Source of the DNA: Candidatus Undinarchaeota archaeon
Lineage (GTDB): Archaea; SpSt-1190
Direction of reading: 5' to 3'
DNA length: 48,520 nucleotides
NCBI GenBank assembly: GCA_964549355.1
Contig: CAZJUS010000002.1
Coordinates: 1-48,520, forward strand
The notes under the pieces are model-generated. The model worked only from the letters and a program-made list of their open reading frames with translations, was not told the origin of the DNA and searched no databases. Both the position numbers and the translations under genes were made by a program. Below, piece by piece: positions 1 through 48,520 of the stretch (within the stretch, counting starts at the first letter, position 1; each line of letters begins with the position of its first letter).

Positions 1-42
1 AACGCTACGGCGTTCGACCACGTGGCCTGCCTCCGGCAGGCC
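1..42. repeat. Double-hairpin element, copy A (truncated by window edge; reads outward on minus strand)
   Basis: The reverse complement GGCCTGCCGGAGGCAGGCCACGTGGT + AACGC-CGTA-GCGTT aligns with 48469-48512. It has an 8-bp hairpin, a CCACGTGG palindrome and a second tetraloop hairpin. Confidence 0.5.
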
Positions 43-54
43 GAACAGTTTTGC

Positions 55-84: not shown

Positions 85-186
85 TGGCCAAGCTTTGCGA
101 ACGGCTTTTACGAAAGCCGGCAACGGTGGCCATCCCTCGCCCCGCTCCGCGGGCTCGGTGTTCACTACCCCCGTGTCAAGGAACAG

Positions 187-195
187 TTTTATTAA
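187..195 (+). promoter_or_regulatory. TATA-like box (ttttattaa) upstream of the FKBP gene
   Basis: AT-rich box centred about 25 nt upstream of the GTG at 216, which is leaderless-type spacing. The reverse strand also reads as TATA-like (cttaataaaa). Confidence 0.35.
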
Positions 196-215
196 GCCTG
201 AATTTTGGGAAGAAA

Positions 216-875
216 GTGAAAATAGGCCAGTTCGTTGAAATTGAATACAGCGGACGACTTGAGACCGGGGAGATTTTTGATTCAACCGACCCGAAGGAGT
301 TCAAGGAAGCAGGAGGCCCCGTCACCATTATCATGGGTGCGGGCCACCTCATCAAGGGCATAGAGAAGGCCATGCTGGAAATGAAGCCGGGCGAGGAGCG
401 CGATCTGGACATACCTCCTGAGGACGGCTTCGGCAGGAGGGACCCCAAACTCATCAAGCTTTTCAAAGTGAAGGAGTTCCGAAAGCAGGATGTAGTCCCC
501 TACCCTGGACTGCGGGTGACTATAGACAGCAAGCTGGGTTCGGTGGTGAGCGTCAATTCCGGGAGGATCATTGTTGACTTCAACAACCCCCTGGCGGGGC
601 GCAGGCTCATCTATAAAATAAAAATCAACAGAGAAGTCAAGGACTTGGACGAGCAGCTGAAAGGGTTGCTGAAGTTCCACTTTGGAAAAGCCCTGGCATA
701 CAAGAAAGAGGGGGACAAAATCCTGATAGAGGATGTCCCTGACTTTGCCCGGGAGCGTCTGCGGACTGAGCTGCTGACATACACAGCTTTTAAAACTGTG
801 GAGTTTATTGATAGGAAGACTGGTGATATGAATGAAAAAAATGATCAAACAGGCAAAAATGACCAAAAAAAGTAA
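216..875 (+). CDS. FKBP-type peptidyl-prolyl cis-trans isomerase (long archaeal type)
   Basis: VKIGQFVEIEYSGRLETGEIFDSTD...GAGHLIKGIEKAMLEMKPGE...DFNNPLAGR is typical of archaeal FKBP/SlyD. A GTG at 216 is preferred over the 84 ATG because 84-215 has no FKBP similarity and contains the TATA box. Confidence 0.85.
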   Translation: MKIGQFVEIEYSGRLETGEIFDSTDPKEFKEAGGPVTIIMGAGHLIKGIEKAMLEMKPGEERDLDIPPEDGFGRRDPKLIKLFKVKEFRKQDVVPYPGLRVTIDSKLGSVVSVNSGRIIVDFNNPLAGRRLIYKIKINREVKDLDEQLKGLLKFHFGKALAYKKEGDKILIEDVPDFARERLRTELLTYTAFKTVEFIDRKTGDMNEKNDQTGKNDQKK

Positions 876-1926
876 AGAGGAATACGAGAAGTTCCTGAAC
901 AACCACAAGCCCAATATCAAGGTGCTTGGTGTCGGCGGTGCCGGGGGCAACACTGTTGTAAGGCTTTTGGAGATGGGTGTTGAGGGCACTGAGATGGTGG
1001 CCATCAATACAGACGCCCAGGATTTGGCCAAGATTGAAGCGCCTGAAAAGGTGCTCATCGGCAGGGAGCTGACCCGCGGTCTGGGTGCAGGTTCTGATCC
1101 GAATGTCGGCGAGCAGGCGGCCAAGGAGGATTCAGCACTCCTCAAGAAGGCCATAGGCAACCCCGACCTGGCTTTTGTGACATGCGGTCTGGGTGGTGGC
1201 ACCGGCTCCGGTGCAGCACCCATAGTGGCCGAGCTGGCCAAAAAATCCGGGGCTCTGACAATAGCAGTGGTCACCCTCCCTTTCAACAACGAAGGCATAC
1301 TGAGGTGGGAGAACGCCCGCTACGGCCTTGAGCGCATCAAGAACCATGTCGATGCAGTCATTGTAATCCCCAACCAGAAACTGCTGGAGATAGTGCCTGA
1401 CCTTCCGCTTATAACAGCTTTCCGCGTGGCTGACGAGGTGCTCTCCAACGCAGTCCGTGCAATTACAGTCATGGTCACCAGCCAGGGCATGGTCAATGTG
1501 GACTTTGCCGATTTGAGGGCGGTCATGACCGGTGCAGGGACCGCCTTGATCGGCGTCGGCGAAAGCGACTCGGAGAAGAGGGCGGAGGAAGCAGTCTTCA
1601 AGGCTGTCAACAACCCCCTGCTGGATGTGGAGCTGTCAGGCGCCAAGGGGGCTTTGATTTACATTGAAGGGGGCAAGTCCCTCAAGCTGGAGGAGTCCTA
1701 CAATATAATAGACCTGATAAGCAAATACCTGAGCAGCGATGCCAAGATGATTTGGGGTGTCGGCCTGCCCGACGAGAGTCTGGGCAATACAGTCCGGGTC
1801 CTGGTCATCCTTACCGGCGCCAATATCGGCAAATTCTACTACCCTGAGGGGGAGTCGATGGAGGCCCGGGAGAAGGAAAGGATGGGAGATGAGCTCGGCA
1901 TTGAGTTCGTAGAGGTCGAAGAATGA
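832..1926 (+). CDS. ftsZ: Cell division GTPase FtsZ
   Basis: Contains GVGGAGGNTV and the tubulin signature GGGTGSGAAP. In-frame alternative ATGs lie at 841 and 859. Confidence 0.95.
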   Translation: MKKMIKQAKMTKKSKEEYEKFLNNHKPNIKVLGVGGAGGNTVVRLLEMGVEGTEMVAINTDAQDLAKIEAPEKVLIGRELTRGLGAGSDPNVGEQAAKEDSALLKKAIGNPDLAFVTCGLGGGTGSGAAPIVAELAKKSGALTIAVVTLPFNNEGILRWENARYGLERIKNHVDAVIVIPNQKLLEIVPDLPLITAFRVADEVLSNAVRAITVMVTSQGMVNVDFADLRAVMTGAGTALIGVGESDSEKRAEEAVFKAVNNPLLDVELSGAKGALIYIEGGKSLKLEESYNIIDLISKYLSSDAKMIWGVGLPDESLGNTVRVLVILTGANIGKFYYPEGESMEAREKERMGDELGIEFVEVEE

Positions 1927-28898: not shown

Positions 28899-29228
28899 AT
28901 GGATGAAGCAAATGATGCGGGGGCGAGAGTCCAGTTCACAGGCATAGTCCGAAGCGAGGGCGGCAGGCTGTGGGGGCTGGAATATGAAAGCTACGATGAG
29001 CTGGCGGTCAAGGAAATTGAGAAGCTTAGGCGGGAGGCTGTTGAAAAGTTTGGAGTCTTCAAAGTGGAGCTCCAGCAGAAAATCGGCAGGTTTCCGGCGG
29101 GGGCTCCCGTCTTCCACGTAGTGGTGTATGCGCGCAACCGGAAGGAAGCCTTTGAGGCTTGCAGCTGGCTGGTGGACCAGTTCAAGGAAAGAATCCCCGT
29201 ATGGAAGCACGAGATACCAAAAGAATAA
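28899..29228 (+). CDS. moaE: Molybdopterin synthase catalytic subunit MoaE-like (short, 109 aa)
   Basis: Contains FTGIVRSE..., LEYESY, ARNRKEAFEAC and FKERIPVWKHE (the conserved K...P.WK.E motif). Confidence 0.7.
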   Translation: MDEANDAGARVQFTGIVRSEGGRLWGLEYESYDELAVKEIEKLRREAVEKFGVFKVELQQKIGRFPAGAPVFHVVVYARNRKEAFEACSWLVDQFKERIPVWKHEIPKE

Positions 29229-29252
29229 ATCCGATACCAAAAGAATAAATCC
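29213..29252. repeat. Perfect 20-bp tandem duplication (gataccaaaagaataaatcc x2) spanning the moaE stop codon
   Basis: Read directly from the sequence: 29213-29232 equals 29233-29252. Confidence 0.95.
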
Positions 29253-31881: not shown

Positions 31882-32129
31882 TGAATTTGTTCCGGAGGCG
31901 CGAGACCCAGGAGGGATTCACCCGCAAGTTTCCCAAAGAGCGCATGGGGCGTGTTCACTACGACAAGTCCAAGTGCATTCGTGCTTATGAATGCGTCAAA
32001 TACTGCCCTGCACAGGCTATCCGGATTGGGAAGGACAAATTCATAGAAATTGACCATGAAAAGTGCATAAGATGCGGCGTGTGCACTCTGGTATGCCCGT
32101 CGAAAGCGCTGACTATGAGGAAGAAGTGA
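31866..32129 (+). CDS. 2x[4Fe-4S] ferredoxin subunit (NuoI/MbhN-like)
   Basis: Contains CIRCGVCTLVCP and a degenerate first motif CIRAYECVKYCP. The internal ATG of ORF 31737 was used. Confidence 0.8.
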   Translation: MFKVLMNLFRRRETQEGFTRKFPKERMGRVHYDKSKCIRAYECVKYCPAQAIRIGKDKFIEIDHEKCIRCGVCTLVCPSKALTMRKK

Positions 32130-32154
32130 TGTGGATGAGGAAGAAGTGATGTAG
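32115..32154. repeat. 20-bp tandem duplication (atgaggaagaagtgatgtRg x2) spanning the ferredoxin stop codon
   Basis: Read directly from the sequence: 32115-32134 vs 32135-32154, with 19/20 identical. Confidence 0.95.
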
Positions 32155-38857: not shown

Positions 38858-39160
38858 ACCCATCCACCTGAATGGTGTGAATACAATACGGACGAGTGTG
38901 CCTGCCAGATAGCCGATGAAGAGCTTGCCTCCGAAAAGCATGGCTGCCGGGGACGCGGTCCAGTTGGTCGACAGGGCATAAAAACTTGCAGGCAGTACTG
39001 CCGCCAGCAGAGAAAAGACAGAGCCCACCAATCTGCTGACGCTCCCGCGGGTGAAAAGGCCGACAGCAAGCCCGACGGCTATTGGAAGGATCAGACTGCC
39101 TGTTCCGAGATGTATTGGGATGAACCATGAGGCGAGGCCCAGCAGTATGAGTTCAAGCAT
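38831..39160 (-). CDS. Small membrane protein (109 aa)
   Basis: Three or four hydrophobic segments. The ATG (39160-39158) directly abuts the 3' end of tRNA-Lys. Confidence 0.5.
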   Translation of the reverse strand: MLELILLGLASWFIPIHLGTGSLILPIAVGLAVGLFTRGSVSRLVGSVFSLLAAVLPASFYALSTNWTASPAAMLFGGKLFIGYLAGTLVRIVFTPFRWMGSLFKRTGK

Positions 39161-39233
39161 CGGGCCCGGGGGGATTCGAACCCCCGGCCACTGGGTTAAA
39201 AGCCCAGCGCTCTACCGACTGAGCTACGAGCCC
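39161..39233 (-). tRNA. tRNA-Lys (anticodon UUU), no encoded CCA, no intron
   Basis: The minus strand reads GGGCTCG TA GCTC AGTCGGTA GAGC G CTGGG CTTTTAA CCCAG TGGCC GGGGG TTCGAAT CCCCC CGGGCCC G. This folds as a full cloverleaf with one G-U pair in the acceptor stem. Confidence 0.93.
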
Positions 39234-39272
39234 GAACTTTCACGAAGTTCGATCACGGTGCCTGCTTCGCCT

Positions 39273-39302
39273 GCTTCGCGGCTCAGCAGGCAGATTAGTT
39301 TT
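39273..39302. repeat. 30-nt conserved motif, copy B (gcttcgcggctcagcaggcagaTtagtttt), upstream of tRNA-Lys
   Basis: 29/30 identical to 55-84. It lies 39 nt upstream of the mature tRNA 5' end when read on the minus strand. Confidence 0.55.
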
Positions 39303-39305
39303 GAT

Positions 39306-39326
39306 CAACCTTTTCTTAAAAGGTTG
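39306..39326. other. Perfect 9-bp hairpin (caacctttt-ctt-aaaaggttg) flanked by an AT/T-rich run
   Basis: The inverted repeat was read directly from the sequence. In minus orientation it precedes the 30-nt motif, as the hairpin at about 102-119 does for copy A. Confidence 0.5.
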
Positions 39327-39562
39327 CTTTAAATTATTTTTTTGGAATATAAAGCATTCGGATATTTGTTTTTCAGAAAGAGTGGCAATGGAAATTGGGG
39401 GAGTGGCAACAGAAACCATATTAGCATCCTCGTCCAAGGATTGTTTGCGGTCTATCGCAACCTTTTTAAATAATCATTCAGGATTTAATCAGTGTCCGGG
39501 TTTAACTCTTTTTCTGATGGTTTTTTGGCCTCAGGACATGATTTTAAAGGAGCTGGAACAAA

Positions 39563-48456: not shown

Positions 48457-48468
48457 TTAATCAGCCCC

Positions 48469-48520
48469 GGCCCGCCGGAGGCGGGCCACGTGGTGTCGCT
48501 TCGTTAAGCGACGGAGAAGC
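48469..48520. repeat. Double-hairpin element, copy B (12 nt after the rps7 stop, runs into the window edge)
   Basis: GGCCCGCC-GGA-GGCGGGCC ACGTGGT GTCGCTT-CGTT-AAGCGAC. It aligns with the reverse complement of 1-42 and shows a compensatory base-pair change. Confidence 0.5.

Follow-up and report, generated by a model that had tools for sequence, protein, structure and literature searches.

The stretch of DNA described here (48,520 nt, referred to throughout at its full length as the window) is contig C2 of the Altiarchaeota genome G000, which comprises 780 kb in 49 contigs and is approximately 93% complete. This report concerns the region directly upstream of the tRNA-Lys(UUU) gene on the minus strand of the window and the repeat family of which this region is a member. 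The relatives compared most closely were G001, from the same genus, and G002, from the next genus; with G000 they form part of a family set of ten genomes (G000–G009), which are 0.6–0.9 Mb in size and 72–94% complete. The G000 population is represented in the metagenomes Ga0190348, Ga0190359 and Ga0164311.

A first-pass annotation, made from the sequence alone, had divided the region into an A/T-rich stretch, a perfect 9 bp hairpin, a 30-mer and a 39 nt spacer. The hairpin is indeed perfect and the parts follow one another as described: read along the minus strand, the order is TTTATATT, the A/T stretch, the 9 bp hairpin, the box GATCAAAA, the 30-mer and then the remainder up to tRNA-Lys. However, the last 38–39 nt are not a spacer, as they hold the 3' half of a second hairpin (V), an anchor box ACCGTGATC and a third hairpin (H) of 6 bp. 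The four parts are one 93 nt unit (39326–39234, minus strand). We refer to its hairpins as T (the T/A hairpin), V (the variable hairpin) and H (the terminal hairpin). The features are as follows.

39346–39353, minus strand: TATA box TTTATATT of tRNA-Lys, upstream of the unit; a putative promoter element, judged by its conservation in G000, G001 and G002
39327–39340, minus strand: A/T stretch, TATA-like
39306–39326, minus strand: T/A hairpin, the left-end hairpin of the unit, with a perfect 9 bp stem, an AAG loop and a T4 run
39299–39306, minus strand: GATCAAAA box (family consensus GACCAAAA)
39273–39302, minus strand: 30-mer, made up of the A/T linker (AAAACTAAT) and the 5' strand and apex of the V hairpin
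39259–39292, minus strand: V hairpin as folded, with an 8 bp outer stem, a tandem GA/GA internal loop and an inner GCC...GGC stem
39251–39259, minus strand: anchor box ACCGTGATC (family ACCGTGRTC or CACGTGGTC), defined by alignment and pattern counts
39234–39250, minus strand: H hairpin (CTTCGNNAAG), GAACTT-CGTGA-AAGTTC, 6 bp, the last base of which adjoins tRNA +1
39161–39233, minus strand: tRNA-Lys(UUU), found by ARAGORN and by Rfam (RF00005, 78 bits)

In the T/A hairpin 39326–39318 pairs with 39314–39306, and in the outer stem of the V hairpin 39266–39259 pairs with 39292–39285, the 3' strand being the part that falls in the supposed spacer. When a 97 nt stretch was folded as RNA, the three hairpins were obtained with a free energy of −34.2 kcal/mol (z = −4.3). 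We agree with the first-pass annotation that the 35 nt before the tRNA contain no TATA-like box; the closest are TTTATATT (39353–39346) and the A/T stretch (39340–39327).

Copies of the unit and their targets

The 30-mer is present twice in the window, at 39273–39302 and at 55–84, both on the minus strand; as first reported, the copies differ by one mismatch (29/30), and none of 100 dinucleotide shuffles gave a match. A 21 nt core of the 30-mer occurs five times in G000, in each case beside a tRNA gene or at a contig end: before tRNA-Lys, before tRNA-Ile (C15), after tRNA-Gly(CCC) (C21), after tRNA-Ala(GGC) (C3) and at the left end of the window. The tRNA-Ile copy is 98.8% identical to the tRNA-Lys copy over 84 nt, with the same distance of 38 nt between the core and +1. 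An nhmmer search with 19 seeds retrieved 56 related stretches (approximately 5.8 kb in G000), almost all of which lie next to tRNAs or contig ends, and of the 33 matches to a loose pattern 16 are no more than 200 nt from a tRNA, where chance would give 0.85. The module is thus tied to stable-RNA genes, as had been supposed, and the genome-wide search did not return the scatter of copies unrelated to RNA genes that the first-pass annotation had named as the contrary case.

These stretches share a common layout across the tRNA flanks. A T/A hairpin with GAYCAAAA is followed by an A/T linker, one or two V hairpins with GA/GA loops, a box of the form ACCGTGRTC or CACGTGGTC and an H hairpin of the form NNNCTTCGNNAAGNNN, after which comes either tRNA +1 or a tRNA 3' fragment starting at the T-loop. 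The V architecture, with its tandem G.A mismatches, recurs with other sequences at other loci. The end modules are inverted-like, with a hairpin and GAYCA on the left and TGRTC and a hairpin on the right (for example, GAGCTTT..AAGCTCGACCA at both ends). The inner pentamers GAYCA...TGRTC match perfectly in only about six of 13 units, and left ends are often truncated; with perfect pairs in only about half of the units, covariation of these pentamers as an RNA helix was not convincing. Units also occur in tandem arrays. At C15:14471–14533, upstream of tRNA-Ala(CGC), we note three tandem 21 nt copies of TACTGGTGAGCAAAGCGAACC in the V region, so that the 5' half of the hairpin is triplicated.

The copies of the H helix vary in sequence but keep their structure. 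In a MAFFT alignment of 23 copies, with the helix columns given by hand, 94% of the cells are paired and 23 cells have changed on both sides, a result equalled by none of 500 shuffles. RNAalifold applied to the plain MAFFT alignment gave no structure because differing loop lengths shift the register. Among single mismatches in stems, read on the tRNA strand, there are two G.T and six A.C, and this lack of a G.T excess gives no support to a structure specific to the RNA strand; the counts fit DNA palindromes or young copies.

Whole units are narrowly distributed. The anchor-plus-H pattern was matched 15 times in G000, four times in G001 and once in G002, with no match in 14 other genomes of the phylum or in viral contigs, and a search for the exact 21-mer core in 185,000 species genomes gave only chance matches in bacteria. 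The T/A hairpin module is more widespread: a 16-mer, AAAAGCTYGACCAAAA, made up of the 3' half of the T/A hairpin and GACCAAAA, is found in eight of the ten family genomes with 2–16 copies in each; these are G000, G001, G002, G004, G005, G006, G008 and G009, and the motif is missing from G003 and G007. Matches to reversed-pattern controls were close to zero, and the 16-mer is essentially absent from other Altiarchaeota families. A full-text literature search found no description of this repeat system.

Units are typically located between a tRNA and a 15–44 nt copy of the 3' or 5' end of that same tRNA. The tally covered 44 tRNAs in G000, 34 in G001 and 34 in G002. In G000 the tRNA's own 3' end is copied downstream for 11 of the 44 tRNAs (77–169 nt away) and its own 5' end is copied upstream for three (73–111 nt away); the corresponding figures are five and zero of 34 in G001 and nine and three of 34 in G002. 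The duplicated segments comprise either tRNA positions 1 to approximately 20 or the part from the T-loop to the 3' end (approximately 53 to 73), and those of 20–23 nt include exact copies. With all observed duplications taken together, the lengths are 15, 17, 19, 20, 20, 21, 21, 21, 22, 22, 23, 24, 35, 37, 42 and 44 nt. The right boundary of the unit is precise: more than 20 copies have an H hairpin whose end coincides exactly with tRNA +1 or with the T-loop. Hairpins of at least 5 bp end at tRNA +1 in 13/44 tRNAs of G000, 13/34 of G001 and 14/34 of G002. Each of the tRNA fragments is accompanied by an adjacent intact tRNA of the same identity, and some duplicates depart from the functional copy at a single base. 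The duplication extends from the acceptor end as far as the D-loop or T-loop, at the elbow of the tRNA, which may be a clue to the process or may simply reflect selection for intact tRNA genes.

The same unit can be joined to quite different targets. The unit that contains the 30-mer adjoins tRNA-Lys, tRNA-Ile, a fragment of tRNA-Gly(CCC) and a fragment of tRNA-Ala; in the core copies on C21 and C3 the last 17 or 22 nt of the tRNA just upstream are repeated behind the terminal hairpin, and the tRNA-Ile unit on C15 is bracketed by a perfect 20 nt duplication of tRNA positions 1–20. A 55 nt V-anchor-H unit is found at five loci with 96–100% identity between copies; it is followed by a 3' fragment of tRNA-Gly(GCC) on C4, by a 3' fragment of tRNA-Thr on C46, and by the duplicated 3' ends of protein genes on C16 and on the metagenome contig L082. 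A 150 nt composite with inverted end modules is 94% identical between C10, where it lies behind an intron-containing tRNA (tRNA-Glu(CTC) according to ARAGORN), and C20, where it lies behind tRNA-Met, and each copy is flanked by its own 21 nt duplicate. More distant family members have minimal versions, such as that in G005, in which a 24 nt 5' duplication surrounds only the T/A hairpin and GACCAAAA. Units upstream of tRNAs always share the orientation of the tRNA; units also lie antisense against tRNA 3' ends, as at tRNA-Val on C4 and tRNA-Met on C20.

Comparison of orthologous loci indicates turnover. The aligned TATA block of tRNA-Lys (GCTTTATATTCC, GGCTTATATTTC, GCTTTTATATTT) is conserved in G000, G001 and G002. 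The tRNA-Lys leader of G001 has the T/A hairpin as in G000, with V and H hairpins that are wholly different, and that of G002 consists only of a plain 20 nt hairpin. V and H are thus replaced wholesale between orthologous loci, while the adjacent promoter remains approximately 95% identical. A mosaic also occurs: on C15 a 34 nt piece identical to window 39247–39214 is joined to a counterpart of window 39326–39243. In G001 tRNA-Ile has a plain promoter and lies 118 nt after tRNA-Cys; in G000 the same space holds a DUF429 gene, two units and a 5' fragment.

The DUF429 gene (C15:2987–3751; L098:388–1152, minus strand), which lies outside the window, encodes a protein of 255 amino acids (Pfam E = 2e-20). 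It is situated between tRNA-Cys and tRNA-Ile, adjoining the two repeat units and the tRNA 5' fragment, and among the genomes of the phylum the DUF429 family is present in G000 alone. The gene has the appearance of a foreign cassette (0.9 kb) that has settled at a tRNA hot spot. We considered whether this nuclease-fold gene could encode the mobilizing enzyme and rejected it: with units in eight or more genomes and the gene in only one genome of the phylum, it is cargo and not the engine.

The left end of the window carries further modules of the same family, listed here in minus-strand order.

85–230, minus strand: chained modules from the stop codon of gene 282–1298 (minus strand) to the 30-mer, consisting of a GC-rich hairpin, ACCGTTGCC, the hairpin 119–102 and GGCCAAAA
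55–84, minus strand: second copy of the 30-mer (29/30); the V hairpin is represented by its 5' half alone, and a second hairpin is inserted behind it
1–54, minus strand: continuation of the unit, comprising a linker, the hairpin GGCCTGCC-GGA-GGCAGGCC (42–24) and the box ACGTGGTC (23–16)
15–1, minus strand: first hairpin of a terminal module, cut by the contig end

The first-pass annotation had noted a hairpin of the TTTT/AAAA type before this copy of the 30-mer. A hairpin is present there, at approximately 119–102, but it is of a different type (CTTTCGTAAAAG) from the T/A-loop hairpin of tRNA-Lys. Two further hairpins come after the 30-mer, at 42–24 and 15–1. The continuation (1–54) is nearly identical to C3:277–323, upstream of tRNA-Ala(GGC), and to C36:6503–6549. 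The contig L082 is a strain variant of the left part of the window (98.6% identity over 866 nt); where it corresponds to window 159–260 (minus strand), at L082:860–1040, it carries a different unit at the 3' end of gene 282–1298, flanked by a 35 nt duplication which includes the stop codon of that gene and followed by tRNA-Trp with an intron. The array of modules at the left end of the window is therefore variable between strains. Towards the right end, 48468–48494 is an inverted module of the same family with a 92.6% match to window 17–43, the hairpin-box part of the left end; both contig ends of the window break within these repeats.

Two short tandem duplications in the window also deserve mention. 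One at 29213–29252 is a perfect 20 nt duplication and one at 32115–32154 is a 20 nt duplication that is exact at 18 of 20 positions; each lies at a gene border with nothing between its copies, one of them spanning a stop codon and the other a start region. Their length places them in one class with the tRNA-end duplications, and the process that produced those might have left them behind as empty products. Genome-wide 21 nt tandem duplications were also considered as excision footprints, and most of these proved to be 7-codon repeats inside proteins, so that only the two in the window are left as possible relatives.

A probable transcribed leader and a proposed mobile repeat

The first-pass annotation had offered two readings of the module, as part of a long transcribed leader or as a shared regulatory or processing signal for stable-RNA genes. 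The leader is very likely: the unit lies downstream of a TATA box that is conserved in three genera and upstream of +1, and it would therefore be transcribed. Transcription from the TATA box at 39353–39346 would start at approximately 39323, at the foot of the T/A hairpin, and the unit would form a 5' leader of approximately 90 nt which RNase P would cut off. The T/A hairpin of tRNA-Lys has only four T's, which would suit read-through. The T run is of the T4 type in 11 of 12 T/A hairpins located in leaders compared with 18 of 35 in trailers (Fisher p = 0.017), a bias which fits selection for read-through. Behind tRNA genes the T/A hairpin and GACCAAAA probably also act as a two-way oligo-T terminator; this is the natural reading, since T5-loop-A5 and the AAAA after it provide each strand with a run of T's. 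The RNase P RNA is present on C1 as a full-length match to the archaeal model (83.5 bits, E = 4e-24), so that the leader could be removed in the ordinary way and no special processing signal is needed. We note that this RNase P RNA gene (C1:10363–10663) scores just under the Rfam gathering score of 84 bits and can for that reason be missed by standard annotation.

The reading of the unit as a dedicated signal fares less well. The 21 nt core is confined to G000; two of its five copies are located downstream of tRNA genes, with tRNA 3' fragments behind them; the V hairpin of the tRNA-Lys leader is wholly different within the genus, and in the next genus only a plain hairpin is present; and one unit of the family lies at the 3' end of a protein gene in a strain variant. 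The copies are distributed as those of a repeat with tRNA borders for targets would be, and not in the manner of a conserved signal. We consider it somewhat more probable than otherwise that the unit is not a dedicated tRNA-Lys signal and is instead one copy of a lineage-specific palindromic repeat of tRNA borders, carried along as a leader.

With a similar confidence, a little above even, we interpret the unit as a modular palindromic DNA repeat without genes, belonging to one family of small-genome Altiarchaeota and non-autonomous in the manner of miniature inverted-repeat transposable elements (MITEs) or repetitive extragenic palindromes (REPs). Units would be inserted or exchanged at tRNA gene borders, with each event duplicating the tRNA end, so that the insert is always left with an intact tRNA gene at its side. 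The duplicated ends themselves are observed; the insertion step would account for them. The mover could be an unrecognized nuclease or recombinase of the host or of an extrachromosomal element which makes staggered cuts, or the units could move by short-homology recombination.

Several observations weigh against this interpretation. No tyrosine recombinase, Y1 transposase, TnpB, Cas1, reverse transcriptase or DDE_Tnp_1 was found in G000, these being the only families searched (PF00589, PF01797 and PF01867 for tyrosine recombinase, Y1 transposase and Cas1, respectively, and RVT for reverse transcriptase). Tyrosine recombinase PF00589 is absent from nine of the ten family genomes, which are 72–94% complete, and present only in G004. 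The duplication lengths cluster at 20–23 nt and are not fixed, as they would be with a classical transposase that cuts at a set stagger, and the left boundary of the unit varies too. At the tRNA-Lys site itself no empty allele was observed. Finally, the 16-mer AAAAGCTYGACCAAAA has been kept across genera that are 30–37% apart in RpoB, and its conservation, together with the hairpins at +1 in 13–14 tRNAs in each of three genomes, could reflect a host function and not selfish spread.

Two related side observations may be recorded here. The PF00589 family would include XerA, and its presence in only one of ten family genomes is unusual for archaea, even when their completeness of 72–94% is taken into account. 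A CRISPR array of approximately ten units with a repeat of 36–37 nt lies at C25:11074–11690 in an assembly in which no Cas1 was found.

As to the mechanism, duplications that are clustered yet variable in length, with a precise right boundary and a varying left boundary, fit neither a classical transposase nor a one-site integrase. It is conceivable, though we rate it as quite unlikely, that an undescribed insertion process places the hairpin-GACCAAAA module and its passenger hairpins at tRNA ends without any known integrase, transposase, Cas1 or reverse transcriptase. If true, a novel type of mobile element or a novel recombinase would be at work, perhaps one able to recognize the geometry of the tRNA gene, and stable-RNA genes would obtain portable terminators, promoters and leaders from the inserted units.

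Alternative explanations

The alternative with the most weight, which we nevertheless regard as unlikely, is that the units are expression cassettes for stable-RNA genes selected by the host, the tRNA fragments being by-products of local duplication. Under this explanation the T/A hairpin and GACCAAAA would serve as a terminator or insulator, or the TTTTAAGAAAA loop of the hairpin would serve as a TATA box, and V-anchor-H would be a structured 5' leader aiding the folding, protection or RNase P cleavage of the pre-tRNA. The distribution of the T/A hairpin module lends this some credit. The 16-mer ending in GACCAAAA is family-wide with almost no control matches, and the T/A hairpin with GAYCAAAA trails many tRNA genes, directly following the 3' end of 16 of the 44 tRNAs in G000 and of many in G001 and G002; in 35 trailers of the three genomes a T/A hairpin with a run of T4–T6 starts within a few nucleotides of the tRNA 3' end. 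The A/T-only loops of the leader copies resemble TATA boxes, at several loci approximately 27–46 nt from +1, and may have a promoter role. The hairpins of at least 5 bp ending at +1, the covariation of the H helix and the constant orientation of upstream units point in the same direction.

However, most tRNAs, including essential single-copy ones, have no leader unit and have a plain TATA box at approximately −30 to −40. The wholesale replacement of V and H beside a nearly unchanged promoter speaks against this explanation, as does the occurrence of units after tRNAs, antisense to tRNA 3' ends and at the ends of protein genes. A leader–trailer processing stem, of the rRNA-like or bulge-helix-bulge kind, was rejected: pairings of at least 6 bp between the last 16 nt of the leader and the first 22 nt of the trailer numbered 16, compared with 15.1 for mismatched pairs. 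The mismatches in stems show no wobble bias towards the RNA strand, and no Rfam family was matched.

Two further explanations each have a small share of our belief, below those given above. In the first, the units are the worn-down attL/attR arm regions of integrative plasmids or viruses that used a tyrosine integrase in the T-loop or D-loop, and the fragments are displaced att sites. A T-loop class of integrase sites in tRNA genes was reportedly described by Williams in Nucleic Acids Research in 2002, and the 3' duplicates found here do span the region from the T-loop to the tRNA 3' end. The duplicates that are one base off the functional copy, the 0.9 kb foreign DUF429 cassette at one such site and the integrase of G004 could be taken in the same sense. 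Against this, G000, G001, G002 and six other family genomes have no tyrosine recombinase, the inserts are only 36–170 nt in length and the anchor-plus-H pattern was not matched in viral contigs. One unit is moreover joined to at least four different duplicated targets, including protein-gene ends, which a site-specific integrase with one attP would not yield.

The second of the two, which we hold to be just as improbable, requires no dedicated enzyme. Palindromes next to strongly transcribed tRNA genes would lead to replication slippage, to template switching or to Campbell-type single crossovers on 20–40 nt of homology with DNA acquired from relatives, and in this way hairpin modules and tRNA ends would be copied between tRNA loci. 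The variable duplication length (15–44 nt), the absence of known recombinases, the tandem arrays of units and the mosaic on C15 are consistent with such events. Such events are less readily reconciled with a right boundary that is precise in more than 20 copies and with duplication lengths that cluster at 20–23 nt, and near-identical units at unrelated targets look more like a defined insertion reaction.

The last explanation, under which a separate small RNA would be transcribed from the unit (a guide of the C/D-box or H/ACA-like kind, a ribozyme releasing the 5' end of the tRNA, or one half of a split tRNA), is scarcely credible: CUGA and tandem G.A pairs are present in the V hairpin and the unit directly adjoins a tRNA with tRNA fragments nearby, but the V sequences are not conserved, there is no C-box partner, and no split tRNA gene is needed because every fragment accompanies its intact tRNA. 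Within 39140–39420 a search of Rfam 15 gave only the tRNA at the gathering score and nothing credible at E < 1. A self-cleaving ribozyme or known small RNA was rejected on this ground and on that of the RNase P RNA noted above.

Relation to known systems and consequences

In our view the unit is a tRNA-border palindromic repeat, and as such it can be compared with several known classes of element. MITEs and foldback elements, for example the Sulfolobus SM MITEs, resemble it in being short, non-coding, hairpin-rich and present in many copies, with end modules that in the unit are inverted-like, and also in their direct target duplications and in copy numbers that differ between close relatives. 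The mobile GC-cluster hairpins of yeast mitochondria (PMC4478555) are a further analogue of the foldback type. Unlike MITEs, the unit is associated with duplications of 15–44 nt, mostly 20–23 nt, and not a fixed 2–10 bp; its left boundary varies, its targets are exact tRNA gene ends and no transposase-bearing parent was found among the families searched. REPs and bacterial interspersed mosaic elements (BIMEs; REPINs) share with the unit short imperfect palindromes with a box beside the stem, clusters or inverted pairs after genes and a possible side role in termination or RNA stability. The unit differs from these bacterial elements in that it has no RAYT/Y1 transposase and no GTAG box, is archaeal and is tied to tRNA borders with duplication of the gene end.

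For the mode of spread, judged by analogy, the nearest counterparts appear to be casposons, with their 15 bp duplication at the tRNA T-loop and 3' end (PMC5137440), and the integrase sites of the T-loop class. Casposons of the Aciduliprofundum boonei type encode Cas1 and PolB, are of kilobase size and give duplications of 14–15 bp, and in vitro their off-target events give duplications of variable length, as are seen here (PMC5137440). A target duplication at the tRNA 3' end and the T-loop as part of the target are common to casposons and the unit, and the terminal inverted repeats of casposons resemble its inverted-like end modules. However, the unit is only 36–170 nt in length, its duplications are mostly 20–23 nt, many tRNAs are hit and Cas1 (PF01867) was not found in G000, G001 or G002. 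Tyrosine-integrase attL/attR sites of the T-loop class in tRNA genes are alike in the direct repeat from the T-loop to the 3' end, in the regeneration of an intact tRNA and in the displaced fragment on the far side. They are unlike in that nine of ten family genomes lack an integrase, the inserts are tiny, many 'att' sequences belong to one insert and duplicates of the tRNA 5' end (positions 1–20) and protein-gene ends are also hit.

In G000, G001 and G002 up to a quarter of the tRNA genes in a genome lie near a copy of their own end, and approximately a third have a structured leader. There is accordingly a risk to annotation, as tRNA fragments can be miscalled, contigs break at the repeats and tRNA gene sets look incomplete. 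Genomes of this small size are usually thought to be nearly free of mobile DNA. The repeat described here nevertheless persists and turns over in genomes of 0.6–0.9 Mb without any of the recombinase families searched, which points to an unrecognized enzyme or host process that makes insertions with duplications of approximately 20 nt. The family also offers a natural experiment in how far archaeal pre-tRNAs tolerate structured leaders of 50–120 nt, and in compact two-way terminators.

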